Shown here: positions 4,725 through 38,998 of the stretch, piece by piece
How positions within the stretch are numbered: the first letter of the stretch is position 1
Layout: every line of letters starts with the position of its first letter
The notes under the pieces: generated by a model
The model's database searches: none
Seen by the model: the letters and a program-made list of their open reading frames with translations, nothing else
Told to the model about the DNA's origin: nothing
Source: Chloroflexota bacterium
GTDB taxonomy: Bacteria; Chloroflexota; Dehalococcoidia; SM23-28-2; RBG-16-64-32
Direction of reading: 5' to 3'
DNA: 64,000 nucleotides
Assembly (NCBI GenBank): GCA_022574655.1
Contig: JACZRQ010000001.1
Span: forward strand, 6,214-70,213
Made by a program: the position numbers and the translations under genes

Positions 4725-5399
4725 CTAGTCGCGCGCGGACGCAACGGCGGCGCGGAGGGCCTTGATGTTTTCGGCGACCGAGGCGCGATCGTTGAACACG
4801 GCCGAGGCGCTGACGAGGACGTTTGCGCCCGCGAGGACGCAGCCAGCGGCGGTCTGGACGTTGACGCCACCGTCGACTTCGATCTCGGTGCTGAGCCTCC
4901 GCGAGTCGATCAACTCCCGCAAGCGTTTCACCTTCGGCAGCGCACTCTCGATGAACTTCTGGCCGGACGCGCCGGGGTTCACCGCCATCACCATCACTTG
5001 ATCGATTTCGGGCAGTATCTGCTCGATCTCGCTGACGGGCGTCGCGGGGTTCAGGCAGACGCCCGCCTTCTTCCCGCGACCGTGCACCTCCTGCACGATC
5101 CGGTGGAGGTGGGTCGCTGCCTCGACGTGGACGTTGATGATGTCGGCACCGACGTCCATGAACGTACCGACGTGCTTCTCCGGCTCGACGATCATCAGGT
5201 GGATGTCCAGCACGAGACCCGTCGTCCGGCGCACGGCCTCGACGATGGGGGAACCGATCGTGATGACGGGAACGAAACGCCCGTCCATGATGTCGATGTG
5301 GAGATACTCGGCGCCCGCGGCTTCGCACTCCTTGATCTGCTCGCCCAGCCGCAAGAGATCCGCCGAAACGATCGAAGGGGCAATCTTAATCTGACTCAC
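4725..5399 (-). CDS. rpe: ribulose-phosphate 3-epimerase
   Basis: 224 aa carrying SIVSADLLRLGEQI...HIDIMDGRFVP...DIHLMIV, which are Rpe signature segments. Confidence 0.85.
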   Translation of the reverse strand: MSQIKIAPSIVSADLLRLGEQIKECEAAGAEYLHIDIMDGRFVPVITIGSPIVEAVRRTTGLVLDIHLMIVEPEKHVGTFMDVGADIINVHVEAATHLHRIVQEVHGRGKKAGVCLNPATPVSEIEQILPEIDQVMVMAVNPGASGQKFIESALPKVKRLRELIDSRRLSTEIEVDGGVNVQTAAGCVLAGANVLVSASAVFNDRASVAENIKALRAAVASARD

Positions 5400-6799
5400 G
5401 ATTGTCCCTCAAGCCGCTTCCGTGCTTCGGCGAGGGCGGCTTCTACACGGTTGGGCGCCGTACCGCCGGGCACGTCGCGGGCGGCGATAGACGAACGAAC
5501 ATCGAGCGATAGGATGTCGTCCTCGAACAGCGGCGAGCAGGCGCGGAAATCGGCGAGCGTGAGTTCGTGCAGGCCCTTCCCGGAGTCCTGCGCAGACGCC
5601 ACGAGCTTCGTGACCGCCTGGTGCGCGTCGCGGAAGGGCATGCCTTTGCGAACGAGGTAGTCGGCCACGTCCGTCGCCAAAGTGTACGAGCCTGCCGCTG
5701 CTTCCTCAGATTTGGCGGCGTCGATCTGAAGCGCCGGGATCATCGCCGCTAGAACTTCTAGCGTCGGCAGGAGCGTGTCGACCGTGTCGAACAGCGGCTC
5801 TTTGTCCTCTTGCAGGTCGCGGTTGTAGGCCAGCGGCAGCCCCTTCAGCGTCGTGAGGATCGCGATCAGGTTGCCGTATACACGGCCGGTGCGGCCGCGG
5901 GCCAGCTCGGCGATGTCCGGATTGCGTTTCTGCGGCATGATGCTGGAACCGGTCGCGAACTGCGGCGGCAGCTTCAGGAAGCCAAACTCAGCGCTGGACC
6001 AGACGATGATATCTTCGCACAGCCGCGAGAGGTGCATCATTATGGTCGCGGCGGCGGCGTGGAAGTCGATAACGAAGTCGCGGTCCGAGACAGCGTCGAT
6101 GCTGTTGCGGCTGACGCGGCTAAAGCCAAGCTCCTTCGCGACGAAGTCACGATCGATGTCGTACGGCACGCCGGCGAGCGCACCGGAACCGAGCGGCAGC
6201 TCATCTGCATTTTCGCGAGCGACAGTGAAGCGGCGGACGTCGCGATCGAGCATCTCGAAGTACGCGAGCAGATGATGCGCGAGAAGCACGGGCTGCGCCC
6301 GCTGCAGGTGGGTGTAACCGGGCACAACGACATCGCGGTTCGCCTCGGCTAGCTGTAGCAGGGCCGATTGAAGCGCCCTGGTCCCCGCGACCGTATCCTC
6401 ACACGCCTGCATCACGAACAACCGCATGTCGGTCGCGACCTGGTCGTTGCGGGAGCGCGCTGTGTGTAGACGTGCGGCGGCATCGCCGATCTTTTCCCGC
6501 AGTCTCACCTCGATGTTGAGGTGGACGTCCTCTAGCTCCTCACGCCAAGGGAAGGTATCGCTCTCGATCTCCCGCCGGATGTCTTCGAGACCGCGCACGA
6601 TCGAGTCTGCGTCTTCGGTCGAGATGATCGCTTGTTTGCCGAGCATCCGGGCGTGCGCGATCGACCCAGCGATGTCATCGCGGTAGAGCCTGCGATCGTA
6701 GGCTATCGAAGCGCTGTACTTGAGGGCGCGGCGATCGAGGCCGCTCGCGGTCGGGCTCTTGGCGGACGAGTCGTCAGCCATCGGCGCGGCCATTCGCAA
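5396..6799 (-). CDS. argH: argininosuccinate lyase
   Basis: 467 aa containing SRNDQVATDMRLF and GSSIMPQKRNPD, the fumarate-lyase/ASL signatures. It lies in an arg gene cluster. Confidence 0.9.
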   Translation of the reverse strand: MRMAAPMADDSSAKSPTASGLDRRALKYSASIAYDRRLYRDDIAGSIAHARMLGKQAIISTEDADSIVRGLEDIRREIESDTFPWREELEDVHLNIEVRLREKIGDAAARLHTARSRNDQVATDMRLFVMQACEDTVAGTRALQSALLQLAEANRDVVVPGYTHLQRAQPVLLAHHLLAYFEMLDRDVRRFTVARENADELPLGSGALAGVPYDIDRDFVAKELGFSRVSRNSIDAVSDRDFVIDFHAAAATIMMHLSRLCEDIIVWSSAEFGFLKLPPQFATGSSIMPQKRNPDIAELARGRTGRVYGNLIAILTTLKGLPLAYNRDLQEDKEPLFDTVDTLLPTLEVLAAMIPALQIDAAKSEEAAAGSYTLATDVADYLVRKGMPFRDAHQAVTKLVASAQDSGKGLHELTLADFRACSPLFEDDILSLDVRSSIAARDVPGGTAPNRVEAALAEARKRLEGQS

Positions 6800-7568
6800 A
6801 GAGGGGGATGCTCCTGATGTCGGCGAGCGTTGAGATGGTGTAGTCGGGCACGGGGCCGGGTTCGTCTTCGGCAGGCTCGTCCTCGGTCTCCTCGACGGGC
6901 TCGTCCTTCACAGGCTTGCGCCAGACGGCGACCATGCCGAGCGCCTTCGATCCGCCAACGTCCGCATGGAGGCTATCGCCGACCATGGCGGCCTGATTCG
7001 CTTCGAGGTTCAGTTCTCCGAGTGCCAGTTCGTAAATCATGGGATGCGGTTTCATGTAGCCGACATCACAGGAGATGACGGTGGTCTCGAAGAGGTCGGT
7101 CAGCCCGAGGTCGGCCAGCTCCTGGTGGAAGCGCGGTCCGCTGTGGCCGCGGTTAGTGACACACCCAATCCGATACCCTTTGTCCCGCAGCCAGTGCAGC
7201 GTATCGAGCGCGTCCGGGAACAGCTTACGACCGAGAAAGGCGCCACCGAGGTTCCAGGTGTCCCACAGCTCTTCGCCTTGCTCCCGGGTTAGCTCCATGT
7301 CATGTTCCGCAGCGACCTTGCGACAGAGCGCCGGATAGCCGGGATCGATGCTGTCGCCGTGGAAAGCGCGGTGTGTTGCATCCTCGATCGAAAGGCGGAT
7401 GTCACGTCCGAGGTAGAAGCGGCCATCCGTGAACTCATGGCCCCAGCTTTCGACCAGACGTTTGAGACGCGAAACAGTCTCTCGCCGAATGACCTTGCCG
7501 GGCGGCATGCTTGGGAAGTGCCAAAGCGTGTCGCCGAGATCGAACAGGACCGCCTTGATCTCGCTCAC
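6774..7568 (-). CDS. HAD superfamily hydrolase
   Basis: 264 aa with the N-terminal HAD motif I (AVLFDLGDTLW). It is inserted between argG and argH. Confidence 0.7.
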   Translation of the reverse strand: MSEIKAVLFDLGDTLWHFPSMPPGKVIRRETVSRLKRLVESWGHEFTDGRFYLGRDIRLSIEDATHRAFHGDSIDPGYPALCRKVAAEHDMELTREQGEELWDTWNLGGAFLGRKLFPDALDTLHWLRDKGYRIGCVTNRGHSGPRFHQELADLGLTDLFETTVISCDVGYMKPHPMIYELALGELNLEANQAAMVGDSLHADVGGSKALGMVAVWRKPVKDEPVEETEDEPAEDEPGPVPDYTISTLADIRSIPLFANGRADG

Positions 7569-8773
7569 GCGCCGTCAACCTCGCCCAAGTCCTGAGCCTT
7601 CGCCTGTACGCGGACGGGCAAGCCCCAGATGTCGATGAATCCCACGGCGGAGGTGCGGTCGAACTCGTCGCCTTTGTCGTAGGTCGCCAGAGCGAAGTCG
7701 TACAGGCTTTTCGGCGATTTGCGGCCGACAACCGTCGCGACGCCCTTGTGTAGCCGCAGGCGAACCTCGCCTGTGACGTGCCGCTGGGTGGCCCGAACGT
7801 ACGCTTCGAGGTCCTTGTGGTGTGCGGAGAACCAGAGGCCGTTGTACACGAGCTCGGCGTACTCCTGCGCGATGCGGGCCTTCAGCCGGCGCTGGTCCTT
7901 CGAAAGCGTGAGAGCCTCGAGGGCGTCGTGTGCCGCGAGGAGCGTGATTCCGGCGGGCGCTTCGTAGATCTCACGAGATTTGATGCCGACGAGCCGGTCC
8001 TCAACCCGATCGAGGCGACCGACGCCGTGCTCACCCGCGAGGGCGTTCAACTGCTTGACGAGCGAGACGGGATCGACCTCTTTACCATCGACAGAGACGG
8101 GAGCGCCCTTCTCGAAACCGATCTCGACGTACGCCGGTTCGTCTGGCGCCTCAGCGGGCGACTTCGTCCAAGCGTAGACGTCCGCGGGCGGTTCCTGCCA
8201 CGGGTCCTCGAGGACGCCGCACTCGATGCTGCGTCCCCAGAGGTTCTCGTCGATGCTGTAAGGACTCGCCTTGGTCACTTCAATTGGGATCGAGTGTTCG
8301 TGTGCGTAGGCGATCTCCGACTCGCGGTCCATCTCCCACTCGCGCAGAGGCGCAACGACCTTGAGGTCGGGCGCCAGCGCTCCTACCGATACGTCGAGGC
8401 GGACCTGATCGTTGCCCTTCGCAGTACAGCCGTGAGCGACGGCGGTCGCGCCTTCGGCCCTCGCCACGGCAACCATCTCACGAGCGATCAACGGGCGAGA
8501 GAGCGCCGTCGCGAGCGGGTATCCCTGGTAGCGTGCGCCGGCGGCGAGCGCCGGGAAGACGAAGTGGCGGATGAACGTCTCCTGGCAGTCCGCCCATTGG
8601 TAGCCGACCGCTCCGGCGGTCATCGCCCGCGACTGGAGCGTCTCCCGATCGCGGTCCATGCCGACGTCGACGGTCAGTGCGACGACGTCGTATCCGCGCT
8701 CTTCCTTGAGCCAGCGTATGGCGATGGACGTGTCCAGTCCGCCGGAGTACGCCAGTATGATCTTCTCAGCCAT
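7565..8773 (-). CDS. argG: argininosuccinate synthase
   Basis: 402 aa starting MAEKIILAYSGGLDTSIAIRWLKEE, the PP-loop ArgG signature. Confidence 0.9.
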   Translation of the reverse strand: MAEKIILAYSGGLDTSIAIRWLKEERGYDVVALTVDVGMDRDRETLQSRAMTAGAVGYQWADCQETFIRHFVFPALAAGARYQGYPLATALSRPLIAREMVAVARAEGATAVAHGCTAKGNDQVRLDVSVGALAPDLKVVAPLREWEMDRESEIAYAHEHSIPIEVTKASPYSIDENLWGRSIECGVLEDPWQEPPADVYAWTKSPAEAPDEPAYVEIGFEKGAPVSVDGKEVDPVSLVKQLNALAGEHGVGRLDRVEDRLVGIKSREIYEAPAGITLLAAHDALEALTLSKDQRRLKARIAQEYAELVYNGLWFSAHHKDLEAYVRATQRHVTGEVRLRLHKGVATVVGRKSPKSLYDFALATYDKGDEFDRTSAVGFIDIWGLPVRVQAKAQDLGEVDGA

Positions 8774-8784
8774 AGTTATTCCTT

Positions 8785-10002
8785 CTACTTTGGTGGGCCA
8801 GAATCGAGGCCTGCAAGCACAGCATCCAGTATCTCCATCGCACGATCGATCTCTTCCTCGCTGACGGTGAGTGGTGGCACCATTCGCAGTGCAGTCGGCT
8901 TAACGTTGTTCACGATCAGCCCAGCCTCCAGACACTGTGCCAGAATCTCTTCGCTGACAGGCCGATCCAGCTCTATCGCCAAGAAGAGGCCCTTACCGCG
9001 CACTTCCGTGACGATCTCGTGACGGTCGGCGAGCGATTGTAGCTTCCGTTCCATGTACTCGCCGCTGCGCGCCGCTTGAGCTGGGATATCGTGATCCAGC
9101 ATGTACTTCGTGACGGTGTAACCGACTTCGCAGGCGAGAGGACCACCTCCGAACGTAGTGCCGTGCTCGCCAAAACCGAGCGACGCGCAGTGCTCTTTGG
9201 TTAGAAACGCGCCGATGGGGAATCCGCTGCCGAGCCCTTTGGCGACGGCGATTACGTCCGGCTCGATACCGTAGTGCTGGTAGGCGAACATCTTGCCGGT
9301 TCGTCCCATGCCGCTTTGGACCTCGTCGAGGATCATGAGAATGCCGGCCTCGTCACACCAACGGCGGAGGGCCGGGAGGTACTCGTCGGCAGGCACGATG
9401 ACACCAGCCTCGCCCTGCACAGGCTCGATCAGCACAGCCACGGTCTTGGTGCTCGTCGCCTGTTTGATGGCATCGATATCGTCGAAGGGGACGCGGACGA
9501 AGCCCTCGACCAGAGGCGTGAATGGAGCGCGGTACTTCTCCGTGCCGCCCGCTGTAATGGCGGTAATCGTCCGGCCGTGAAACGCTCCTTCAGCGACGAT
9601 GATCTCGTACGCTCCTTCGCGCTTCTCCTTACCCCACTTGCGGGCGAGCTTGACGCAGCCTTCGACGGCCTCGGCGCCGCTGTTGCAGAAGAAGGCACGA
9701 TCCATGCCCGAGGCTTCGCAAAGGAGTTGCGCGAGCTTCGTCTGTGGTTCGGTGTAGAAGTAGTTAGAGGTGAGCATCAGCGTGCGGGCCTGCCGCTCGA
9801 TGGCGGCGACTACGTCGGGATGACAGTGGCCGAGACTGACGACGGCGATGCCGCCGAGGAAGTCCAGGTATTCCTTGTCGTTGGCGTCCCAGACCTTGGT
9901 ACCCTCTCCGCGAACGAGCGTTACGGGCAGACGCTTATACGTCTGGACAACGTACTGCTTGTCCAGCGCCATCAGGTCCCGCTGCAGTGTCTCGTCCATC
10001 AT
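8785..10002 (-). CDS. argD: acetylornithine aminotransferase (PLP-dependent class III aminotransferase)
   Basis: Class III aminotransferase motifs are present (LMILDEVQSGMGRTGKMFA with the PLP lysine region). The likely start is the internal ATG at 10002 (MMDETLQRDL...); the ORF continues upstream to 10092 with Arg-rich junk. Confidence 0.8.
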   Translation of the reverse strand: MMDETLQRDLMALDKQYVVQTYKRLPVTLVRGEGTKVWDANDKEYLDFLGGIAVVSLGHCHPDVVAAIERQARTLMLTSNYFYTEPQTKLAQLLCEASGMDRAFFCNSGAEAVEGCVKLARKWGKEKREGAYEIIVAEGAFHGRTITAITAGGTEKYRAPFTPLVEGFVRVPFDDIDAIKQATSTKTVAVLIEPVQGEAGVIVPADEYLPALRRWCDEAGILMILDEVQSGMGRTGKMFAYQHYGIEPDVIAVAKGLGSGFPIGAFLTKEHCASLGFGEHGTTFGGGPLACEVGYTVTKYMLDHDIPAQAARSGEYMERKLQSLADRHEIVTEVRGKGLFLAIELDRPVSEEILAQCLEAGLIVNNVKPTALRMVPPLTVSEEEIDRAMEILDAVLAGLDSGPPK

Positions 10003-10784
10003 TCCTCTCCCAGTACGGTTCCCGCGAATTCTCCGCGAACGACCGAGGCCAGCGCGCCTTCGCTCCGTCCATCGACGATGACGCCACGGCATCCTGCCCG
10101 AACGGCGCTGAGGCAGGCCTCGACCTTCGGTATCATACCGCCTTGTATCACGCCAGAATCTATCAGGCTTTTCGCTTCTTCGGATGACACGCGGGACAGC
10201 GAATCGCCTCCTTCACCTCGTATCCCCGGCACGTCCGTCAGGAACACGAGCCAGCGTGCCTTTAGTGCGGCGGCGATCGCTCCGGCCATTGAGTCCGCGT
10301 TGATGTTCAGAAGCTGATCTGTCGCCCGGTCCCCCTCCCAGAGAAGGCCGATCGGAGCGATTACCGGGATTACGCCGGTCATCGTGATCCCCTCCAGTAC
10401 GCGCGAGTCCACTTCCGTCACGTCCCCGACGAAGCCAAGCTTCTCGTCTCGCAGCTTTGCCCGGATCATACCCGCGTCGACGCCGGACATCCCGACAGCG
10501 CGCGCGCCCAGCTTCGTCAACGAGGCCACGATCCGTTTGTTTATCAGACCGGCGAGGACGGCCACGACGACGTTCAGCGACTCTTCGTCGGTGACTCGCA
10601 GGCCGTTCTCGAAGCGCGTGTGGATGTTATGTCGAGTCAGCCATTCGTTGATCAGCGATCCGCCGCCGTGCACAACGACGGAACGAACACCCCGGTGCTG
10701 TAATTCGGCCAAGTCTGTGAGGGTGGTGTCGTGGCTCCCAAGCGTGGAGCCGCCGATCTTGGCCACGAGGACGTCGTCTGTCAT
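9999..10784 (-). CDS. argB: acetylglutamate kinase
   Basis: 261 aa starting LVAKIGGSTLG...VVVHGGG, the amino-acid kinase family signature of ArgB. Confidence 0.85.
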   Translation of the reverse strand: MTDDVLVAKIGGSTLGSHDTTLTDLAELQHRGVRSVVVHGGGSLINEWLTRHNIHTRFENGLRVTDEESLNVVVAVLAGLINKRIVASLTKLGARAVGMSGVDAGMIRAKLRDEKLGFVGDVTEVDSRVLEGITMTGVIPVIAPIGLLWEGDRATDQLLNINADSMAGAIAAALKARWLVFLTDVPGIRGEGGDSLSRVSSEEAKSLIDSGVIQGGMIPKVEACLSAVRAGCRGVIVDGRSEGALASVVRGEFAGTVLGEE

Positions 10785-12004
10785 CAGGTTGTGTACAGGC
10801 TGTTGAGGCGAACGAACTCTTCAGTGAGATCGGAGCCCCAGGCGGTCGCCGACTCGGCGCCCCTCGCGAGGTTGACCCTGACGTGGATCTCCTGCGGGAT
10901 AAGGCACGCCTCCGCGGTGGCTCTGTCCAAGCCGGTGGGAGCGCCGTCCTTGAAGAGGCATAGGTCGCCGCCCTCAGGGCTTCTGAAGTACAGTTCGACG
11001 TTGTCGATGTCGAAGGCCGCACCGCTGTTCCCTACGGCCGCGAGGATGCGCCCGAAGTTTGGGTCGTGGCCCGTCATCGCTGTCTTCACGCCCGGCGACC
11101 TCACGATCTCGCGCGCGGCCTTACGGGCGTCCTCGTGCGATTCCGCTCCGTCGACGCGGACTTCGATGACTTTCGTACCGCCTTCCGCATCGGCGACCAT
11201 CGCCTTTGCGAGATGAGTACAGACGAGCTTCAGCGCCTCGCTAAACGGCCCGGCCTCGGGATGCCCGTCGGATATCGTGTCGCCACCGGCCATGCCGTTG
11301 GCCATCACCAGCGCCATGTCGTTTGTGCTGGTGTCGCTGTCGATGTCGATCATGTGAAACGAGACGTCGACTGCGTTCTTTAACGCCGTCTTCAGGAAAA
11401 CGGGCTCGACCGCCGCATCCGTAGTCAGGAAGCAAAGCATCGTTGCCATGTTGGGATGGATCATCCCAACGCCCTTGACCACGCCACCGACCGTCCACGC
11501 ACCGTGCTTGGCGGCGATGTACTTGGGCACGGTATCCGTCGTCATGATCGCGTTCGCGAAGTCGATTCCGCCCTCGGGTGTGAGGCCGATCTCCTTCACG
11601 CCGCTCGCGATCTTTTCCATCGGCAGGTGCGGCGGACCGATGACGCCCGTCGACGCCACGACCACATCGTGAGGATCGACGCCGAACTTCTCGCCGGCGA
11701 GCTGCGCCATCTCGATCGCGTCGGCGTGGCCCTGCTTGCCGGTGGCGCAGTTCGCACAGCCCGAGTTGGCGATGACTGCTTGCGCTCTGCCGTCTGCGAG
11801 ATGCGACTGGCTGATCAGCACGGGCGCCGCCTTCAGATTGTTGGTCGTAAACACCGCTGCTGTCGTACATGGCTTCTCGGAGTACAGCAGCGTCAGGTCA
11901 AGCTTCTCCCAGTCGCTACGAACGCCGACGGCCGCTGCTCCGGCGACGAAGCCCTTAGGCGTGGTGACAGTTCCTTCTGGTTGAATTTCGATTCCGTTGT
12001 CCAT
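10784..12004 (-). CDS. argJ: bifunctional glutamate N-acetyltransferase / amino-acid acetyltransferase ArgJ
   Basis: 406 aa containing the self-cleavage region ATMLCFLTTDA and the ArgJ fold signature. Confidence 0.85.
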   Translation of the reverse strand: MDNGIEIQPEGTVTTPKGFVAGAAAVGVRSDWEKLDLTLLYSEKPCTTAAVFTTNNLKAAPVLISQSHLADGRAQAVIANSGCANCATGKQGHADAIEMAQLAGEKFGVDPHDVVVASTGVIGPPHLPMEKIASGVKEIGLTPEGGIDFANAIMTTDTVPKYIAAKHGAWTVGGVVKGVGMIHPNMATMLCFLTTDAAVEPVFLKTALKNAVDVSFHMIDIDSDTSTNDMALVMANGMAGGDTISDGHPEAGPFSEALKLVCTHLAKAMVADAEGGTKVIEVRVDGAESHEDARKAAREIVRSPGVKTAMTGHDPNFGRILAAVGNSGAAFDIDNVELYFRSPEGGDLCLFKDGAPTGLDRATAEACLIPQEIHVRVNLARGAESATAWGSDLTEEFVRLNSLYTT

Positions 12005-12030
12005 CGTTGTGGTCCTCTCTAAGGATGCGA

Positions 12031-13050
12031 TTACGGGTATAGCGCCGGCATGTCGATACCCATGGTCTCCGGCAGCCCGAGCATAGCGTTCATGTTCTGG
12101 ATCGCCTGCCCTGCCGCGCCCTTAACGAGGTTGTCGAGGACGCTAACGACCACGAGCCTGTCAGTCCTTTGATCGACCGTCGGGTACACGTGGCAGGCGT
12201 TGGTGCCTCTCACCTGCTTCGTCGAGGGCGGGGCATCAACGATTCGGACGAACGGTTCGTCGCTGTAGAACTGTTGGTACAGCTCGCGAACCTCCACCTC
12301 CGTCTTCGTTGTTGATAGCGGCGCATAGCAGGTCGAGAGGATGCCACGCGTCATCGGGACCAAGTGTGGTGTAAACGTCACCTTCGGCGACTCGGACTCC
12401 CGCCACATCTTCCGTAGCTCCTGGACGATCTCCGGCAAATGCCGGTGCCCTTTGAGGCCGTACACCGACACGCTTTCTCCCGCCTCGGCGAGCAGCAGGC
12501 TCTGCTTGAGACCACGACCCGCGCCCGAGACACCGGACTTGGAGTCGATGATGATGTCTGGGCCGATGAGTCCGGCCTTGGCTGCGGGCGCCAGCGCCAG
12601 CAGCGCACTCTCGGGATAGCAGCCTGGGTTGGCGATTAGCTTCGATGCTTTCACCGCCTCGCGGTTGAGCTCAGTGAGGCCGTATGCGACCTTCGGAAGC
12701 AGTTCGGGCGCTGGGTGCTCGCCGCCATACCACTCGGCGTACTCCTTGGCGTCGTTGAGGCGGAAGTCGGCGCTGATATCGACGACGGGCACTCCCGATT
12801 GGACGAGGGGCGCGACGCTCTCTGCGCTGGCAGCGTGCGGCAGTGCCGAGAACACGAAGTCGACGTCGCCAAGCTCGGGGTCGACGGCCATGTCGTAGGC
12901 AGCGAGGTGCGGGAAGACTTCGGCGAGCTTCTTCCCGGCTTCGCTGCGGCCGGTGACGCTGGCGAGTTGGGCTTCGGGGTGGTTGTACAGCAAGCGAGCG
13001 AGTTCGGCGCCGGCATATCCTGTTACGTTCAGTATTCCCACTTTCACCAT
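12031..13050 (-). CDS. argC: N-acetyl-gamma-glutamyl-phosphate reductase
   Basis: MVKVGILNVTGYAGAELARLL matches the ArgC N-terminal Rossmann motif. The start is taken as the ATG at 13050, preceded by GGAGA; the ORF extends to 13083 but that stretch overlaps a terminator hairpin. Confidence 0.85.
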   Translation of the reverse strand: MVKVGILNVTGYAGAELARLLYNHPEAQLASVTGRSEAGKKLAEVFPHLAAYDMAVDPELGDVDFVFSALPHAASAESVAPLVQSGVPVVDISADFRLNDAKEYAEWYGGEHPAPELLPKVAYGLTELNREAVKASKLIANPGCYPESALLALAPAAKAGLIGPDIIIDSKSGVSGAGRGLKQSLLLAEAGESVSVYGLKGHRHLPEIVQELRKMWRESESPKVTFTPHLVPMTRGILSTCYAPLSTTKTEVEVRELYQQFYSDEPFVRIVDAPPSTKQVRGTNACHVYPTVDQRTDRLVVVSVLDNLVKGAAGQAIQNMNAMLGLPETMGIDMPALYP

Positions 13051-13062
13051 CGGACAGTCTCC

Positions 13063-13099
13063 AAAACTAAAAATCCCCACCACTCGTGTAGTGGTGGGG
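13063..13099 (-). terminator. intrinsic (rho-independent) terminator-like hairpin plus U-tract in the argC 5' leader; possible attenuator
   Basis: On the minus strand, a perfect 10-bp GC-rich stem CCCCACCACT / AGTGGTGGGG with loop ACACG (13099..13075) is followed by AUUUUUAGUUUU (13074..13063). The U-tract then runs straight into the argC RBS GGAGA and the AUG at 13050. Confidence 0.6.
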
Positions 13100-16657: not shown

Positions 16658-17674
16658 CTATGGGTTCGCCTCGAAGTACGCCCAGACCGCCACCGCCACG
16701 TCGCGGACCGGATCCAACGTGTACGAGGCGTCGGTCAGAACGGCGATGATGTATGGACCGGCCGGCCCCCAGACAATGGCTACGTCGTGCCCGGCGTTGG
16801 CGAAGCTGCCAGTCTTGTGGGCGATCGCCGTGCCGGCGGGGGCGCCGGCGATGACGCCGCCGGAGAAATGCTCCTGGCGCATGAGGCTCAGCATCTCCAG
16901 CCGCGAGGAGTCGGATACGCCCTCGCCGGAGGCAATGGCAGCGAAGAGGCGGGCCATACCATCCGCGGTTGCCGGGAGGGCGCGGTTCAAGAACTGCGTG
17001 TCCTCGATGCCCAGCTTGAGCAGCGTCTGATCAGCCGCGACGCCGACGAGGTCCTGCATCAGTACCGCGGTCGGCGTGTCGCTGGCGATCGTCATCGCAC
17101 GGATCGCGCCTTCGACGGTGATGATGTCGCCCTCTTCGAGACCGAGGAACTCCAGCGTGCCGAGGTCGTAGACGACGTACTTCTCCTCAAGCACTACCTC
17201 CATCGCGAAATCGAGATTGCCAGCGTCGCGCTGGATGAACGCCTCGTACATGAGACTCGACTTGAAGAGGCTGGCGCCGTAGTAGACGTTCGATTCGTTG
17301 AACGCGGCGTAGCGTCCATCAAGCAGGTTATGGACGACGACGGAGTACTCGCCGCCGAAGTCGGGCAGCGCCGTCTCGATGACGTTCTGTAGGTCAGCGT
17401 CTAGTGCGGGGTCTGCGAACGGGGACGGGAGAGCCGGAACGTTGACTGTGCTTTGGAGCCATTCGAGGGACTGCGGAGAGCGAGTCTGCGTGGGGCTGGG
17501 CCGTGGGGATGACGTCACGGCAGCAGTTGGAGTCGGCGTAGTGATAGTTACGGGAAGCGTCGGCGTCGCTGTTTCCAGGGGATTCTTGCCGCCGCCACAC
17601 GCGACGGCGACGAGGATGCCCAAGGCAACGACCAGTGGCAGCGAAGTCGAAACTGGCAAGCGAATCGTACTCAT
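16658..17674 (-). CDS. class A beta-lactamase-like serine hydrolase lipoprotein
   Basis: The signal/lipobox is VAVACGG, followed by a Pro/Thr-rich linker. S-x-x-K (SLFK) and KTG (HKTGS) motifs are present. Its stop abuts the nth start, suggesting one operon. Confidence 0.65.
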   Translation of the reverse strand: MSTIRLPVSTSLPLVVALGILVAVACGGGKNPLETATPTLPVTITTPTPTAAVTSSPRPSPTQTRSPQSLEWLQSTVNVPALPSPFADPALDADLQNVIETALPDFGGEYSVVVHNLLDGRYAAFNESNVYYGASLFKSSLMYEAFIQRDAGNLDFAMEVVLEEKYVVYDLGTLEFLGLEEGDIITVEGAIRAMTIASDTPTAVLMQDLVGVAADQTLLKLGIEDTQFLNRALPATADGMARLFAAIASGEGVSDSSRLEMLSLMRQEHFSGGVIAGAPAGTAIAHKTGSFANAGHDVAIVWGPAGPYIIAVLTDASYTLDPVRDVAVAVWAYFEANP

Positions 17675-17747
17675 TGTTAGACGGTGGCCAGCGCCAATAT
17701 ACTGAGTCTGGTCGACACCATATTAGTTTACGTGTAGAAGGGACGAA

Positions 17748-18791
17748 ATGACCGAGCCTACTCGTCTGACGGCTCTCGCTTCCTGCGCCGGTTGAGCCGG
17801 TAAAGCAGGGGCGGACGCCCTGGCGCAGGTGCTGCGCCTACTGAACGACTTGAGGCCAGAAGAGGACCCGAACTTGCTGGTCGGTCTCAGCGCGCCCGAC
17901 GACGCCGCCGTCTACCGTCTGAATGACGAGCAAGCGGTGGTGATGACGACCGACTTCTTCGCACCGCTCGTCGACGACCCCTACGACTTCGGCGCCATCT
18001 CCGCGGCGAACGCGATGAGCGACGTCTACGCGATGGGCGGCGAAGTGACGCTAGCACTGAACATCGCGGCGTTCCCCGAGGAGATGGACTCGAAGATCAT
18101 CGCGGCGATCCTGCGCGGGGGCGCCGAGAAGGTGCATGAAGCGGGAGGCATCATCGCCGGCGGACACACCATCATCGACGAGGAACCGAAGTACGGGCTC
18201 GCAGTGCTGGGCCTCGTTCACCCCGGCCAGATCCTGACGAAAGCCGGCGCAAAGGTTGGCGATGCTGTCTTCTTGACGAAGCCATTGGGCACGGGCATCG
18301 TCACGACCGCCGCGATGCGTGATGAAGCCTCGGCAGATGACCTTCGTGCAGCCGTCGAGAGCATGACTCTCCTGAACAGGCACTCCGTTCACCTCGCACG
18401 CGAGTCGGGCGCCCATGCGCTCACCGATGTCACGGGGTTCAGCTTGCTTGGGCACACGTACGAAATCGCCGACGCATCGGGAGTCGAGATTCGCATCACC
18501 ACGGCCGGTCTGCCGACGCTTCCGGGCACCATGGATTACGCGGCGCGCGGAATCCTCACCGGCGGCGCGGCCCGAAACCGAGACTACCTCGAGGGCAAGG
18601 TGCGAGTGGCGGATGACGTGCCAGAAGCGACGGAGCATATCCTGTTCGATCCGCAAACGTCCGGCGGACTGTTGTTTACGGTACCGTCGGACTCAGCCGA
18701 GGACACTGAGAAGAGGTTCGAGGGCTCGAAGGAGCCGATCTGGCGGGTCGGCGAGGTGGTTGAGGGCGAGGGTGTCGAGGTGACGACCTAG
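17748..18791 (+). CDS. selD: selenide, water dikinase (selenophosphate synthetase) with an in-frame UGA selenocysteine codon at 17793..17795
   Basis: The ATG at 17748 is in frame with the annotated ORF at 17829. The upstream translation MTEPTRLTALASCAG-U-AGKAGADALAQVL aligns with the E. coli SelD [24 protein letters not shown], placing the UGA at catalytic Cys17. The rest of the protein is a clear SelD (NLLVG...DDAAVY...TTDFF...DVTGFSLLGH). Confidence 0.8.
17806..17838 (+). promoter_or_regulatory. SECIS-like stem-loops downstream of the selD UGA
   Basis: Hairpin CAGGG-gcggacg-CCCTG begins 11 nt after the UGA. It is followed immediately by a perfect 7-bp stem GGCGCAG-GUG-CUGCGCC with a G/U-containing apical loop about 34 nt after the UGA. 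Confidence 0.5.
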
Positions 18792-18795
18792 GCTG

Positions 18796-19251
18796 CTAGG
18801 CGAGCATCATTCGCATAGACGTCAGCCACTCGACAATCTCCGGATTGTTATTCACGGCGATCCACTGAGTGCATTTTCGGCCGTTCTCTGAAAAGTCATC
18901 GATAGTGCACTTCTCGAAGCCCATGTGACCGAAAAACGGCCCAGCTTCCATAGTGAACAGGTATAGCTCCCGGACACCGTTCGATTTCGCCTCCTCGATC
19001 ACGTTTTGAGTGAGGCGCCGACCCAGCCCGGTGCCACGTAAGGGCTCCGTGACCACAGCCGAGCGAAGAAGGCCAGCGTCGTCGTAGACCTCAAGGCCCA
19101 CGCACCCGACGACCTCGCCCGCGGCTTCAGCTACCCAGAACGTGTCCAAGAAATCCGCCGTCCGGAACAAGGGGAGGTTTACGGTCCTGAGCAGGCCCTC
19201 GATGATCGCTAGATCGTCGGAGCGGGCCGCGCGAATCGCGGGCTCGCTCAC
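18796..19251 (-). CDS. GNAT family N-acetyltransferase
   Basis: 151 aa with a GNAT acetyl-CoA binding motif (RGTGLGRRL). The substrate is unknown. Confidence 0.65.
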   Translation of the reverse strand: MSEPAIRAARSDDLAIIEGLLRTVNLPLFRTADFLDTFWVAEAAGEVVGCVGLEVYDDAGLLRSAVVTEPLRGTGLGRRLTQNVIEEAKSNGVRELYLFTMEAGPFFGHMGFEKCTIDDFSENGRKCTQWIAVNNNPEIVEWLTSMRMMLA

Positions 19252-22926: not shown

Positions 22927-23370
22927 TTAGACTTCTTGCGGCCAGATGGTGTGGCAGTTCTCGCCCGTTATCGCGTTTACGACCGCAACTCTCTCCAGGC
23001 CGGACAGGCGCGCCATCGCGGTGTCCATGACCTTGGCCGACTCCCCGTGCTCCACGGCACCGACTCGCTCACGTATCCGATCGGCGATCCCGGACTCCTG
23101 GAAGAAGTTGATCGAGTGAGGCCAGACGAAGAACGTGAAACGCTCCGGCGCGCTGAAGGCGGGCCTGCGCTTGCCGAGCCAGAAGAAGCGCTCTTCAACC
23201 GTTGCTACGGGCCCCACTACCTCAGCCATCGCAATCTCAGATTCGGTTGAGCGCGTATCGACGATGAACCGCTCCGGGAAGAGCCGGAATCCGACGGTGA
23301 ACACATCACAATCGTCGACGACTCTGCGTAGTTCCTCGAGGTCGATCAAGACACCGTTTTCAGTAAACAT
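22927..23370 (-). CDS. hypothetical protein
   Basis: 147-aa ORF on the same strand, between ridA and groEL. It has coding-like composition and no family recognised. Confidence 0.4.
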   Translation of the reverse strand: MFTENGVLIDLEELRRVVDDCDVFTVGFRLFPERFIVDTRSTESEIAMAEVVGPVATVEERFFWLGKRRPAFSAPERFTFFVWPHSINFFQESGIADRIRERVGAVEHGESAKVMDTAMARLSGLERVAVVNAITGENCHTIWPQEV

Positions 23371-23455
23371 AGCTCAACCCCTTACGTTCTGTGCGGTACG
23401 ACCGGCTATTCGATTATACGACGTGGGACGCCAAGGCGTCGCTTCGCGCACGGCT

Positions 23456-25084
<1,629 letters not shown>

Positions 25085-25554: not shown

Positions 25555-28500
25555 ATGCAAGAGCCGCACACTCCCACTGCACAAGGTCTATACGATCCCA
25601 GCTTCGAGCACGATAGCTGCGGGGTCGGCTTCATCGTCCATCTCAAGGGCGGGCCGTCCCACAAGATCGTCCGAGATGGTATTGCCGCCCTCGAAAACCT
25701 CTATCATCGCGGCGCCTGCGGTTGTGAGCCCAACACCGGAGATGGCGCAGGCGTTCTTATCCAGATCCCACACGAGTTCCTGACCGAGGAGTGCTCAAAG
25801 CTCGGTATAGCGCTGCCGGACGTTGGCGAGTATGGGGTCGGCACACTGTTTCTTCCGAAGGATGAAGCGGTCCGCGATGAGGTGTTCGGTATCTTCAACA
25901 GGATCGTTGAAGAAGAGGGACAGCTCGCCCTGGGCTGGCGTCGTGTCCCAACGAACAACGAAGACCTCGGCGACTCGGCGCTGGCGTCGGAGCCCTGGAT
26001 GTACCAGGCTCTCGTTGGCCGCGGGTCGGACGATGTGGACGAGGCGGAGCTGGAACGCAGGCTATACGTAATTCGCAAGCGGTTCGAGCACGCCGTCAAG
26101 CGTACCGACATTCCCGCGTCCGATTCGGTGTACTTTGCCAGCCTCTCCTGCCAGCGGCTCGTTTACAAGGGGATGCTCACGGCGCTACAGGTCAACGGAT
26201 ACTTCCCGGACCTCTCGAACCCACTGACGAAGAGCCAGCTCTGCATGTTCCACTCTCGCTTCAGCACTAATACTTTCCCGAGCTGGCGTCTCGCCCATCC
26301 CTACCGGATGATCTCACACAACGGCGAGATCAACACGCTGCGCGGTAACAATAGCTGGATGCGAGCGCGTGAGGCGCTGATCGAGTCGCCTTTGTTCGAC
26401 GACATCAGCAAGACGTTCCCGATAATCGACGAGACCGGAAGCGACACAGCCTGCTTCGACAACGCGCTAGAGCTGCTCACCCTGGCGGGCCGGCCAATCC
26501 ACGAGGCCGTGATGATGATGATCCCGGAGCCGTGGGACGGCCACGAATCGATGAGCCAGGAGAAGAAGGATCTGTACGAGTTCCAGAGCTGCCTCATGGA
26601 GCCGTGGGACGGCCCGGCCTCGATCGCCTTCACCGATGGCAAGCGAATCGGTGCTGTGCTCGACCGTAACGGTCTCCGTCCATCTCGCTATTACGTGACG
26701 AAGGACGGCTACGTGATCATGGCGTCGGAAGTTGGCGTGCTCCCGGTGGAACCCGAGAACATCCTCTATAAGGGTCGCCTGCAACCGGGCCGCATGTTCC
26801 TGATCGACCTCGAAGAGGGCCGCATCGTGGACGATGCGGAGCTAAAGAGCACGATGTCGACGCTGCACCCTTACGGGGAGTGGCTAGAAGAGCACCTGCG
26901 CACGTTCGACAGCCTGCCGAGCGCGGAGCCCGCTGACCGCATCTCCGGAGACGAACTCCTCGAGCAGCAGATGGCGTTCGGCTACACGGTGGAGGACCTC
27001 AAGTACATAGTCGGCCCGATGACTGCGACGGCGCAGGAGGCGCTCGGTTCGATGGGCACCGACACGCCGCTGGCAGTGCTGTCTGACAAGCCTCAACCGC
27101 TTCATTATTACTTCAAGCAACTCTTCGCCCAGGTGACGAATCCACCACTGGACGCTATTCGCGAGGAGATCGTCACCTCAGTCCGCACGCTAATCGGGCC
27201 CGAGGGCAACCTCCTGGACCCGCAGCCCGAGAGCTGTGCCATGATGAGTCTCAATTCGCCGTTCATCAGCAATGAAGAGCTCGCGAAGTTCAAGGCGCTG
27301 GACGACGACGCACTGCGGACGAAAGTGCTGTCGATGCTCTTCGATCCGAATAACGGTTCCCGCTCGCTCGAGACCGCTTTGGACGACCTGTACCAGCAGG
27401 CGGACGAAGCGATCGAAGAGGGAGCAACGATCCTCATCCTCTCCGATCGAGGCGTAGACGAGAATCAGGCGCCGATGCCGTCGCTGCTGGCGGTCGCCGG
27501 GTTGCACAACCACTTGGTCCGTAACCGGACGCGAACTCAGACCGGACTCATCGTCGAAGCCGGGGATGCTCGTGAGGCGCACCACTTCTCTCTGCTCATC
27601 GGCTACGGCGCGGGCGCGATCAACCCGTACCTGGCCATCGACTCGCTCAAGCAGATGATCGACGACGGCATCATCGATGTCGAGTTGGACTACGAGGAGG
27701 CGGTGGCGCGCTACTTGAAGGCGATCAAGAAAGGCGTCGTCAAGGTGATGTCCAAGATGGGCATCTCCACGATCCAGAGCTATCGCGCCGCGCAGATTTT
27801 CGAGGCGATCGGTCTCAACCAGGAGTTCATCGACAAGTACTTCACGTTCACAACTTCACGGATCGGCGGCATCGGTGCGGAAGAGATTGCGCTTGACACG
27901 GCGCATCACCATCGCCGGGCCTATCCAGACCGCGATGGGGGACTCAAGGAGCTAGTCTGGGGCGGTCAGTACCAGTGGCGCCGAGACGGCGAGTATCATC
28001 TGTTCAATCCCGAGACCGTGTTCCGGCTGCAGCACTCTACCCAGACGGGCCGATACGACATCTTCCGCGAATACACGAAGATGGTCGACGACCAGAGCGA
28101 GCGTATGTGTACGCTACGAAGCTTGTTCGAGATCAAGTCTGACCGTGAACCGATTCCGATAGAAGAAGTAGAGCCCGTTGAGGATATGTTCCGGAGGTTC
28201 GCCACCGGTGCCATGTCGTTCGGTTCGATCGGCGCGGAGGCGCACGAAACGCTGGCGATTGCGATGAATCGCATCGGCGGCAAGAGCAATACCGGGGAGG
28301 GCGGCGAGGATCGCCGCCGCTACACACCGGACCCGAACGGCGACCTGCGCCGCAGCGCTATCAAGCAGGTGGCGTCAGGCCGCTTCGGCGTGACGAGCGA
28401 GTACCTCGTAAACGCCGACGAGCTGCAGATTAAGATCGCTCAGGGCGCCAAGCCTGGAGAGGGCGGGCAGCTTCCCGGACACAAGGTCTACCCGTGGATC

Positions 28501-30108
28501 GCCGATGTGCGCTACTCGACGCCCGGCGTCGGTCTCATCAGCCCACCGCCTCACCACGACATCTACTCGATCGAGGACCTGGCGCAGCTCATCCATGACC
28601 TGAAGAACTCGAACCCACGTGCCCGGATCAACGTGAAGCTCGTCGCGGAAGTCGGCGTCGGCACCGTGGCGGCGGGAGTAGCGAAGGCCAAGTCCGACGT
28701 GGTGCTAATCAGCGGCCACGACGGCGGCACGGGCGCGAGCCCGCTGACGTCGATCAAGCACGCCGGCATCCCCTGGGAGCTGGGCCTCGCGGAGACCCAG
28801 CAGACGCTGGTCCTGCAGAAGTTGCGCGACCGCATCGTCGTGCAGACGGACGGGCAGCTGAAAACCGGGCGTGACGTGCTGATCGCGGCTCTTCTCGGCG
28901 CAGAGGAGTACGGCTTCGCGACGGCGCCCCTCGTCGTTATGGGCTGCATCATGATGCGCGTCTGTCATCTCGACACGTGCCCGGTGGGCATCGCGACGCA
29001 GAACCCGAAACTGCGCGAGAAGTTCGAAGGAAAAGCCGAGCACGTCATCAACTTCTTCAAGTTCGTCGCGGAGGAGATCCGCGAGTACCTTGCGGAGATA
29101 GGATACCGCTCGATCGACGAGATCATCGGTCGTAGCGACCTGCTAGACATGCAACGTGCCATCGTGCACTGGAAAGCAAAGGGGCTCGATCTCTCCGCGA
29201 TCCTGTATCGGCCTGACGTGGGACCGGAAGTCGCCACTCGCTGCATCACGACGCAAGACCACGGCCTCGAGAAAGCGCTCGACCAGGAGCTACTGAAGCT
29301 AGCGGCCCCGGCCCTCGAAAAAGGCGAAAAGGTGACGATTGAGATGCCGATCCGCAACATCAACCGTACGGTGGGTACGATCCTCGGTAGCGAATTGACT
29401 CGGAAGTACGGCTTCGACGGACTGCCGGACGATACGATTACGATTAGGTTCACAGGCTCTGCCGGCCAGAGCTTCGGCGCGTTTGTGCCACGAGGCATGA
29501 CGCTCTGGCTGGAGGGCGATGCCAACGACTACTTTGGGAAGGGGCTCTCCGGCGGCAGGATCATCGTGTACCCGCCGAAGAGTTCGACGTTCGTACCGGA
29601 AGAGAACATCCTCATCGGCAACGTCGCGCTTTACGGCGCGACAGCGGGCAGCATGTTCGTCCATGGTGTTGCCGGCGAGCGGTTCTGCGTCAGAAACAGC
29701 GGAGCGATCGCTGTCGTCGAGGGGATAGGCGACCACGGCTGCGAGTACATGACCGGCGGCCGCGTGGTGGTTATCGGACCCACGGGACGCAACTTCGCTG
29801 CCGGGATGAGCGGCGGAATCGCTTACGTTTACGACGAAGACGGTGACTTCGTCATTCGCTGCAACCAGGAGATGGTCGATCTCGAAAAGCTCGACGAGGA
29901 AGACATGGAGCTCGTTCGCGGGCTCATGGAGCGGCACGCCGAATACACGGGCAGCGAGGTTGCGAAGAAACTACTCGCTCAGTGGCCGAAGGTGGCCGAG
30001 AAGTTCGTGAAGATCATGCCACGAGACTTCAAGCGAGTGCTCCAAGAACAGGCTGAGGCCGCGAGCAAGGAAAGCGGAGAAGAGAAGGTTGGCGTGGCCG
30101 GTGGGTAA
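25555..30108 (+). CDS. gltB: glutamate synthase large subunit
   Basis: 1517 aa. The N-terminal amidotransferase nucleophile region is [17 protein letters not shown], with FMN/FeS central and GXGXXG C-terminal domains. Confidence 0.95.
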
Positions 30109-31537
30109 GATCACTGGCTTCATGGAGTTCAAGCGGAGCCTGCCCTCCCGCCGGCCAATCGAAGAACGAGTCCACGACTGGCTCGAGGTTTACGAGGAGT
30201 TTCCGAAGGACCATCTCAAGAACCAGGCCGCGCGTTGCATGGACTGCGGCATCCCGTTCTGTCATGAGGGCTGCCCCCTGGGCAACATCATTCCGGACTG
30301 GAACGACCTTGTCTATAAGGACCAGTGGCAGGAAGCGATCGAGCGCCTCCACGCTACGAACAACTTCCCGGAGTTCACCGGGCGCCTCTGCCCCGCACCG
30401 TGCGAGGCGTCCTGTGTTCTTGGCATCAACGACGACCCAGTTGCGATCAAGCAAGTCGAGCTGGAGATCATCGAGTACGCTTGGGCGCACGGGTGGGTGA
30501 AACCTGAACCGCCGGAGCGTAAGACCGGTTTGAGCGTCGCCGTCGTCGGCTCCGGTCCCGCGGGTCTCGCCTGCGCGCAGCAGCTGGCCCGCGCCGGCCA
30601 TTCGGTCACCATCTTCGAGCGAGACGACCGGATCGGCGGTCTGCTCCGCTACGGGATACCCAGCTTCAAGATGGAGAAGCGCTTCATCGAGCGGCGGCTC
30701 GACCAGATGGAAGCAGAAGGCGTGATCTTCAGGCCAGAAGTCGACATCGGCAAGGACAAGGACGCCCGCTCCCTTCTCAACGAGTTCGACGCGACGTGTC
30801 TGACAGGAGGCGCAACTCAATCTCGCGACCTCGACGTACCCGGCCGCGAACTCAAGGGCGTATACGTTGCGATGGACTACTTGCCGCTCCAAAACAAGCG
30901 CAACGCCGGCGACGAGATCCTGGATGATCAGTTCATAAGCGCCGAGGGGAAGAAGGTCATCATCCTGGGCGGCGGCGACACTGGCGCCGACTGTCTGGGC
31001 ACCGTGCACAGACAAGGCGCCGAGTCGGTGATCCAGATGGAGATACTGACCCGCCCTCCCGACGATAGGGCTGACGATAATCCCTGGCCGACGTGGCCGA
31101 ACATCTACCGTGTCTCGGCGGCGCACGAAGAGGGGGGCGAGCGCGAGTACCAGATCTCGACGAAGAAGCTCACGGGTGAGAACGGGGTTCTCAAGAAGCT
31201 GCACGGCTGCAAGGTGGAGTTCGTCTCCGAGAACGGGAAGATGAACATGAAGGAGATCCCGGATACGGAGTTCGAGGAGGAGGTTGATCTCCTTCTGCTG
31301 GCGATGGGGTTCCTGGGTCCCGAGAACTACATGCTGGAACAGCTAGGCGTCGAGCTGACTGAACGCGGAAACGTTAAGGCCGACGCCGACAAGATGACGA
31401 GCATCCGTGGCGTGTTCGCCGCGGGCGACATGACCCGCGGCCAATCGCTCATTGTATGGGCGATCGCCGAGGGGCGCGACGCTGCACGGGGGATCGACAA
31501 GTTCCTCACCGGCGACACGATGCTGCCGGTCAACTAG
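30089..31537 (+). CDS. gltD: glutamate synthase small subunit (NADPH)
   Basis: 482 aa with the N-terminal 2x[4Fe-4S] Cys motifs and the FAD/NADPH motif [14 protein letters not shown]. It overlaps the gltB stop. Confidence 0.9.
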
Positions 31538-36987: not shown

Positions 36988-37455
36988 ATGCTTACACGGC
37001 TGCTACCCATCGCTATCATGGCTTCGCTGCTGCTTGCCGCCTGCGGCGGTTCCAGCGGGCCGCAGGCCACGCCCCAACCGGTCGGGCGTGGCCCCGCCCT
37101 ACAAACGTTCCTCGGTCAGGCGTACGAGAGCGGCTGGTTCGCGGAGGGAGACCCGATCGACGTGAAGATCGTCGGGACGTTCTACGAGCCGGCGGCGGCG
37201 CGCGCAGCAGAGCTTGGGCTGGGCCTCTACGCCACGGCGCCAGGCACGCCACCGTACTCCGACGGTCTTCCGGGATTCCTGATAACGGCGATCGGCGATT
37301 TCTTCGACTACGACGGCGAAGGCCGCCCACCGGCTGACACGCCGCGACGCCCGGCCGTTGCCGCCGGTTATGTCGACACGCTCGGACGGTTCACGTGGGT
37401 GATGCGGTTCCTAGACTATGAGGAGGAGAGCGAAGGGCAGGCCGGCGGCGGCTAG
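36988..37455 (+). CDS. hypothetical lipoprotein
   Basis: A signal peptide with lipobox LLAAC is followed by a Pro/Gly-rich linker. No family recognised. Confidence 0.5.
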   Translation: MLTRLLPIAIMASLLLAACGGSSGPQATPQPVGRGPALQTFLGQAYESGWFAEGDPIDVKIVGTFYEPAAARAAELGLGLYATAPGTPPYSDGLPGFLITAIGDFFDYDGEGRPPADTPRRPAVAAGYVDTLGRFTWVMRFLDYEEESEGQAGGG

Positions 37456-38906: not shown

Positions 38907-38998
38907 TCTGTTAGATATGACGACTCTGAGCCGGCGACTGATACCATCACAGGGCGGCAATTCTGGAGATACGACCGGCTAGCGTGAAGTTCGGGGGT

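Follow-up and report, generated by a model that had tools for sequence, protein, structure and literature searches.

A selD gene in Chloroflexota DNA that very probably encodes a selenoprotein: an in-frame UGA at the catalytic position and a conserved SECIS-type hairpin downstream

Does the selD gene in the present stretch of Chloroflexota DNA (64 kb in length and referred to here as the window) begin at the GTG codon selected by standard open reading frame (ORF) calling, or does its coding sequence start further upstream and run through an in-frame UGA? A first-pass annotation of the sequence favoured the second possibility. It placed the UGA at the position of the catalytic Cys17 of Escherichia coli SelD and regarded two stem-loops behind it as the layout of a bacterial selenocysteine insertion sequence (SECIS). 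The follow-up analysis reported here indicates that the selD product is very probably a selenoprotein itself, the UGA specifying selenocysteine (Sec) at the catalytic position and a SECIS hairpin following it. Directly read for this purpose were (i) the frame and its homology, (ii) the conservation of the UGA and of its flanking peptide, and (iii) the conservation, the covariation and the Sec-specificity of the hairpin.

Translation from ATG 17748 yields MTEPTRLTALASCAG, reaches the TGA at codon 16 and continues as AGKAGADALAQVLRLL...; downstream of the TGA the protein reads AGKAGADALAQVLRLLNDL..., and no other stop is met until the TAG at 18789-18791. As had been proposed, this frame leads through the UGA into SelD as far as 18791, and it is continuous with the 320-residue ORF called from GTG 17829 to the same TAG. 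With Cys as placeholder at the TGA, the read-through protein matched the NCBIfam model TIGR00476 (selD) with 375.9 bits (cut-off 125), residues 6-316 covering model positions 1-310 of 311, whereas the truncated ORF matched with 351.4 bits and only from model position 31. Addition of the 27 N-terminal residues restores model positions 1-30 and raises the score by 24.5 bits; the proposed location of the SelD N-terminus 5' of the called start was thereby borne out. The full-length protein also matched NF002098 (338.3 bits; cut-off 299), its N-terminal 46 residues alone matched SelD models only (E = 9.5e-5), and PF00586 and PF02769 (Pfam AIRS and AIRS_C) are recorded for an identical database protein. 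Among protein structures, matches were obtained to SelD of E. coli (3u0o, E = 3.4e-65) and of Aquifex aeolicus (2yye, E = 6.4e-60).

In the alignment to the Cys-type E. coli enzyme (3u0o, residues 5-341 aligned), U16 stands opposite Cys17 and K19 opposite Lys20, in agreement with the equivalence suggested beforehand. The ATP-site motifs are common to both proteins: PDDAAV, TTDFF, AANAMSDVYAMGG (NAxSD) and TDVTGF align with their E. coli counterparts, the conserved ATP- and metal-site residues of which are D51, D68, N87, D91 and D227. Judged by these matches, the gene is selD, encoding selenide, water dikinase (selenophosphate synthetase), with selenophosphate synthesis as the predicted activity. 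The E. coli enzyme differs in carrying a second Cys (Cys19) besides Cys17 (G-C-G-C-K, versus C-A-G-U-A-G-K in the window protein), and its gene has neither a UGA nor a SECIS. The N-terminal loop of A. aeolicus SelD (2yye/2zod; SSG-C-AAKVG) aligns to CAG-U-AGKAG of the window protein, but this enzyme stems from another phylum and has no Cys at position -3. Native Aquifex SelD is a selenoprotein and was reportedly crystallised as a Sec-to-Cys variant.

SelD of Acetomicrobium mobile (LRLTELARTSGUAAKLGP..., listed in BSepDB; PMC13326102) belongs to the same family, has Sec at the same position of the N-terminal loop (...G-U-A-[AG]-K...) and likewise has a coding-region stem-loop directly after the UGA. 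The window protein differs from it by the Cys three residues before Sec. Such a Cys (C-A-G-U) is also present in Cys-type relatives, there as C-A-G-C, and the second Cys of E. coli SelD lies instead two residues after Cys17; the Cys at -3 may be a resolving residue or a partner in selenium binding. Among prokaryotic selenoprotein families, that of Sec-containing SelD is the second most widespread (PMC13188914; PMC1794560), and the N-terminal position in question is an established site of Sec/Cys exchange (PMC13188914).

Conservation of the TGA was assessed with 41 loci from a genome scan (one genome per species; nearly all Chloroflexota/Dehalococcoidia metagenome-assembled genomes, MAGs, at 46-70 % identity) and 80 further selD loci from a metagenome scan. 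The window and the 114 loci with a readable N-terminal motif made up the 115 sequences compared. Codon 16 is TGA in 90 of these (Sec loci) and TGC or TGT in the other 25 (Cys loci). The peptide preceding the TGA is strongly conserved in the Sec loci: Arg at -10 (87/90), Leu at -9 (89/90), Thr at -8 (90/90), Cys at -3 (81/90) and Gly at -1 (90/90). The underlying codons vary synonymously, with five codons used for Arg, six for Leu and four for Thr. Residues held constant amid synonymous variation argue that the region 5' of the TGA is translated in this frame and is under purifying selection. On the 3' side, the first two positions (AA) of the Lys19 codon are invariant among the Sec loci.

In the relatives L001, L002, L004, L007, L009 and L124, an ATG likewise precedes the TGA by 14-16 codons, and L005 has CTG (Leu) at the position of the start codon. 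The purine-rich GAAGGGA in front of the ATG, which would serve as Shine-Dalgarno sequence, is kept in L124 (a JGI contig whose SelD is 87 % identical), as are ATG and TGA. The ORF start at GTG 17829 is an annotation artefact that arises because the UGA is read as a stop; as the first-pass annotation had argued, the true SelD sequence lies upstream, and the GTG itself forms the apical loop of a conserved hairpin.

With respect to the two SECIS-like stem-loops previously described after the UGA, folding placed both at the described positions: the proximal one (hairpin 1) starting 11 nt after the UGA in an alternative register, the distal one (hairpin 2) with a perfect 7-bp stem and a GUG loop. 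The proposal held, with one refinement: both structures exist and both fit the general model of bacterial SECIS (bSECIS) elements, but clear selection for RNA structure is evident only for the distal one. The model requires 3-9 nt in the apical loop, 4-16 bp in the upper stem, a UGA-to-loop distance of 16-37 nt and a minimum free energy (MFE) of -7.5 kcal/mol or lower (PMC13188914). It further requires a G in the first two loop positions, which usually follow the pattern N1-G-[G/U]-N-N2 with N1 and N2 paired (PMC13188914).

Hairpin 2 agrees with this model in every respect. Its stem (17822-17828 paired with 17832-17838) begins 26 nt and its loop (17829-17831) 33 nt after the UGA, the loop reads G-GUG-C with G and C paired, and folding of the hairpin alone gave -12.5 kcal/mol (z = -3.0), a value reached by only 2 of 200 shuffled sequences. 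When 17793-17860 was folded as one piece, the result was not significant in this GC-rich DNA (z = -0.86); weight is placed on the isolated fold of hairpin 2 and on the comparative tests.

These tests separate the two types of loci. All six core pairs of hairpin 2 are formed in 73 of the 90 Sec loci versus none of the 25 Cys loci, and the mean MFE is -10.05 kcal/mol in the former versus -4.10 kcal/mol in the latter. Across lineages the stem occurs in compensatory versions (GGCGCA/UGCGCC, GGCUCA/UGAGCC, GACGCA/UGCGUC, GAUGCA/UGCAUC, GGAGCA/UGCUCC and GGCACA/UGUGUC). Several of these variants also alter the encoded residues (R to S, A to T, A to E with R to L), which means that the RNA pairing is preserved at a cost to the peptide. 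In the alignment of the 90 sequences, the covariation at hairpin 2 was not reached by any of 500 column shuffles, and slid registers all scored far lower; a set of 35 sequences gave the same outcome. Within the loop, U is invariant and G nearly so (alignment columns 46 and 47). In the Cys-type locus L047, the same LAQVLRP peptide is specified with CTT and CGG codons, and there is no stem.

In a synonymous recoding test, in which the window peptide was recoded with the codon usage of the window, 2.1 % of the recodings matched the stability of hairpin 2. Extended to the other loci, hairpin 2 surpassed 95 % of the recodings in 81 % of the Sec loci versus 4 % of the Cys loci. On these comparative grounds hairpin 2 is considered a selected SECIS element. 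The proposed bacterial SECIS layout is thus retained for a downstream hairpin that fits the bSECIS criteria, covaries and is specific to Sec loci. Hairpin 2 is probably the SelB-binding site, and we infer that SelB would bind here rather than at hairpin 1.

The E. coli fdhF SECIS invites comparison, being likewise a stem-loop within the coding sequence 3' of the UGA. Its apical part (...GCA-GGUC-UGC...) resembles that of hairpin 2 (...CA-GGU-N-C-UG...), including G-U in the loop. The fdhF minihelix starts about 11 nt after the UGA and has a bulged U in its upper stem, whereas hairpin 2 starts at 26 nt, has a perfect stem without bulged U, and is separated from the UGA by an interval that a second hairpin fills. 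Hairpin 2 is not a copy of the fdhF type, though it lies within the general bSECIS model.

Three side observations concern the family-wide distribution of these signals. Firstly, some Cys-type selD loci (L003, L045, L099, L102, L103) still show hairpin 2 in degenerate form, with 4-5 of the 6 core pairs left, in line with reports of Sec-to-Cys conversion and fossil SECIS in SelD (PMC1794560). Secondly, a minority class of seven Sec-type loci (L052, L072, L073, L084, L093, L105, L120) with the peptide ...PGDLQ[DE]VL... have no hairpin 2; they possess a long near-palindromic hairpin, GGUCCUGGAGAUCUCCAGGAC, at about +13 to +36 nt, its centre some 24 nt from the UGA, and represent an alternative form of SECIS in this protein family. 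Thirdly, the Gly codon preceding the Sec-UGA (17790-17792 in the window) is GGT in 66 of the 90 Sec loci and in none of the 25 Cys loci. The latter use GGC in 20 of 25 cases, which is also the dominant Gly codon of the window genes. Among these loci, related by descent, the GGT bias may reflect a context preference for U 5' of a Sec-UGA.

From the features above, we infer that Sec is actually incorporated at residue 16. Translation would start at ATG 17748, the most likely element directing insertion would be the 7-bp hairpin with G-U in its apical loop, Sec would be inserted within the glycine-rich N-terminal loop at the position of the catalytic Cys17 of E. coli, and the product would be a 347-residue enzyme. 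The features of the locus are compiled in Table 1.

Table 1. Coordinates of selD, its recoding signals and its immediate neighbours in the window
Feature	Position	Strand	Remarks
Beta-lactamase-family gene	16658-17674	-	diverges from selD
GAAGGGA, purine-rich, Shine-Dalgarno-like	17737..17743	+	4 nt 5' of ATG; read from sequence
Full-length selD coding sequence	17748..18791	+	347 residues including predicted Sec16; translation, TIGR00476 and PDB matches
Start codon ATG	17748..17750	+	taken as true start; ATG 14-16 codons 5' of TGA recurs in most close relatives
Cys13 codon	17784..17786	+	three residues before Sec; C-x-x-U arrangement
In-frame TGA, predicted Sec codon (residue 16)	17793..17795	+	equivalent to E. 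coli Cys17
Lys19 codon AAA	17802..17804	+	equivalent to catalytic-loop Lys20 of E. coli; alignment to 3u0o
Hairpin 1, 5-bp stem, GGAC loop	17808..17821	+	-8.0 kcal/mol; possible accessory or spacer helix
Hairpin 2, GGCGCAG-GUG-CUGCGCC	17822..17838	+	SECIS-type element; proposed SelB-binding site
GTG taken as start by ORF track	17829..17831	+	apical loop of hairpin 2; encodes Val28
GNAT acetyltransferase gene	18796-19251	-	converges on selD

Several points weigh against this interpretation. The evidence is at the level of sequence, and since the compared loci are phylogenetically related, their counts overstate the number of independent events. The stem of hairpin 2 begins far beyond the spacing of the fdhF minihelix, and hairpin 1 also conforms to the bSECIS criteria (GGAC loop, 5 bp, 17 nt spacing, -8.0 kcal/mol). 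Rfam searches of the whole window yielded no match at gathering score, and those of 17700-17900 at E <= 10 yielded chance-level matches only (E >= 0.5). Pfam analysis of essentially all long ORFs detected no selA, selB, selU or other selenium-utilisation genes in the window, selC is absent from it as well, and ARAGORN found no tRNA-Sec near selD in 101 related loci (L001-L101).

As to the Sec insertion machinery, ARAGORN recognised no tRNA genes in the window at all. A motif scan of all loci for selA, selB and selU revealed selA beside selD only in the Acidobacteriota locus L038 and in none of the Chloroflexota loci. In this MAG, a 507-residue selA-like ORF (L038:1730-3250) with the pyridoxal phosphate motif FSGDKLVGGPQ is located directly 5' of a Sec-type selD, which is the sole selenium-gene linkage among 121 loci. 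For the genome under study, selA, selB and selC are reasonably presumed to reside elsewhere, because the coding region before the UGA is intact and selected, the SECIS is perfect and the Dehalococcoidia include selenoprotein-rich members (PMC13326102). Indeed, Dehalococcoidia MAGs with 46-49 selenoproteins rank among the selenoprotein-richest bacteria (PMC13326102). Within the window, a crude bSECIS-like scan returned selD and six other hits; three of the latter were checked (62290, 35253 and 15853) and proved out of frame with called ORFs; the scan provided no credible candidate for a second selenoprotein gene. A codon-usage scan for interrupted genes was discarded, since antisense shadow frames dominated it and selD itself was not ranked.

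Among the alternatives, the strongest concerns the identity of the SECIS: hairpin 1 might be the SelB-binding element, hairpin 2 being accessory or a by-product. Hairpin 1 (stem 17808-17812 paired with 17817-17821, z = -1.3; alternative register starting at 17806/17807) starts at 12 nt from the UGA, near the 11 nt of the fdhF minihelix, and as stated passes the bSECIS criteria. Some covariation is evident over the 90 Sec loci, with 73 % of the cells paired and CG/GC exchanges at two pairs, and its mean stability is higher in Sec than in Cys loci (-6.8 versus -4.7 kcal/mol, Mann-Whitney p = 1.6e-4). Moreover, the SECIS predicted in BSepDB for Acetomicrobium SelD is at the position of hairpin 1, where the loop follows the UGA by about 20 nt (PMC13326102), whereas the clearly selected hairpin of the window selD is the distal one. 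However, 18.8 % of the synonymous recodings matched hairpin 1 of the window, and it surpassed recoding in 22 % of the Sec loci versus 12 % of the Cys loci. Its register and loop differ by lineage (GGAC, UGAG, GAAA, CCGAA) without any invariant loop base, similar hairpins are present in Cys-type loci (e.g., L008, L003), and it is weaker in L124, in which hairpin 2 is unchanged. Peptide and codon bias largely explain hairpin 1, which is at most accessory; a SelB-binding role for it is unlikely, though it is the rival that retains most weight.

Rather more speculative is the idea of a tandem SECIS specific to SelD, not described so far and without an Rfam model, that would consist of a variable proximal hairpin and a highly conserved distal GGCGCA-NGUNN-UGCGCC element and be shared by selD of Chloroflexota and many other uncultured lineages. 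The two hairpins would abut with 0 or 1 nt between them, and the distal loop is 32-33 nt away from the UGA. As a spacer, the proximal helix might bring the SelB-binding hairpin to the ribosome entrance, and the strongly preferred U 5' of the UGA might be part of the signal. On balance we consider this doubtful.

A further local structure, the hairpin GCCGGU-UGA-GCCGGU enclosing the UGA itself (17787-17801; -8.4 kcal/mol, z = -2.75), was rejected as a signal, because the same palindrome surrounds the TGC of the Cys-type locus L003 and most likely reflects repeated Ala-Gly codons of the AG-x-AG peptide. It is confined to the closest clade.

The other alternatives concern the UGA itself. Reading of the UGA as Cys, Trp or Gly, by a reassigned code, a suppressor tRNA or near-cognate read-through, is very improbable, even though the inserted amino acid is not readable from sequence alone. 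TGA is the ordinary stop of 3 of 19 Pfam-verified window genes, ending argH, a DAK2/FakA-like gene and an M48 peptidase gene at normal lengths, which argues against genome-wide reassignment. In addition, the UGA of selD occupies the one SelD position of established Sec/Cys exchange (PMC13188914), and the SECIS-type hairpin behind it is confined to UGA-bearing loci.

Slightly less credible still is a true stop, with selD either a pseudogene or starting at GTG 17829 to give an N-terminally truncated SelD. Standard ORF calling and 41 of the 120 best homologue clusters agree with such a start, and the window has no visible Sec machinery, but the truncated protein would be devoid of SelD model positions 1-30, including the Sec/Cys and the Lys of the catalytic loop. 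Furthermore, over 90 loci the 15 codons that precede the TGA vary synonymously while the peptide they encode is conserved, a conserved ATG and a Shine-Dalgarno-like sequence are present upstream, the GTG sits in a stable hairpin loop, and the rest of selD is intact and without signs of decay.

A sequencing or assembly error for TGC or TGT, only one base away and found as Cys codons in Cys-type relatives, is hardly conceivable: an identical 320-residue database protein is encoded on contigs of two independent ENA assemblies of the same organism (ERZ24945681 and ERZ27267515) whose DNA equals that of the window through ATG, TGA and both hairpins, the TGA recurs in the JGI relative and 89 other loci, and a Sec-specific hairpin accompanies it, so that the error, a reservation raised in the first-pass annotation, is excluded.

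With selenoprotein SelD as the preferred interpretation, the public annotation of its relatives can be appraised. The 120 best database homologue clusters divide into 79 full-length proteins with Cys at the aligned position and 41 N-terminally truncated calls, which include almost all of the closest relatives (70-87 % identity). Most truncated calls start in the SECIS hairpin or a few codons 3' of it (MLR..., MAQVLR..., VAQVLR...), and a few further in. The prediction that gene callers would truncate such genes was thereby met in the databases, ORF track and homologue clusters being cut in the same region, and the same problem affects bacterial Sec-containing SelD such as that of A. mobile. 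This suggests that metagenome gene catalogues misannotate Sec-type selD systematically.

The window has a G+C content of about 62 %. Relatives of its selD place it in the Chloroflexota, the nearest genomes being Dehalococcoidia or Chloroflexi soil MAGs, and identity to the species representatives of the genome collection is 70 % at most. The selD gene is monocistronic, and its beta-lactamase-family and GNAT neighbours (Table 1) are also present on the identical and the 87 %-identical contigs. Pfam analysis of the window revealed an arginine-biosynthesis operon, gltB/gltD, TldD/PmbA, znuABC, an extracytoplasmic function (ECF) sigma/anti-sigma pair, groEL and nadE, besides others. The arginine cluster (5396-13083, minus strand) comprises argC, argJ, argB, an argD-type aminotransferase gene, argG, a HAD-family hydrolase gene and argH, the hydrolase gene being inserted between argG and argH; among the window ORFs scanned, no ornithine carbamoyltransferase gene was seen. 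The gltB gene (1517 residues encoded) adjoins a gltD-like gene (482 residues), and a second gltD-like gene (Fer4_20/Pyr_redox_2) is located about 6 kb away on the opposite strand (window regions 25555-31537 and 37452-38960). Two TldD/PmbA genes and an aldolase-SDR (short-chain dehydrogenase/reductase) fusion gene lie between the gltD-like genes. A 628-residue ORF at 23135-25021 (plus strand) was not matched by Pfam; it is a shadow frame of groEL (23456-25084, minus strand; Cpn60_TCP1, 256.9 bits). Long antisense ORFs of this kind are common in the GC-rich window and defeated a simple coding-potential scan.

Sec-containing SelD and its misannotation are already well documented, and the locus offers nothing new in principle. 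The one mildly new thread is the distal SelD hairpin, widely conserved and abutted by the proximal one, along with the GGU bias before the UGA. The main value lies in the corrected annotation, since the database copy and 41 of the 120 homologue clusters are stored without the catalytic loop. With a Sec-containing SelD, the organism is probably a Sec user, which is a cue for annotators to seek further UGA-interrupted genes. Such a SelD also implies a self-dependent loop, in which the making of SelD would require selenophosphate, the product of SelD itself.

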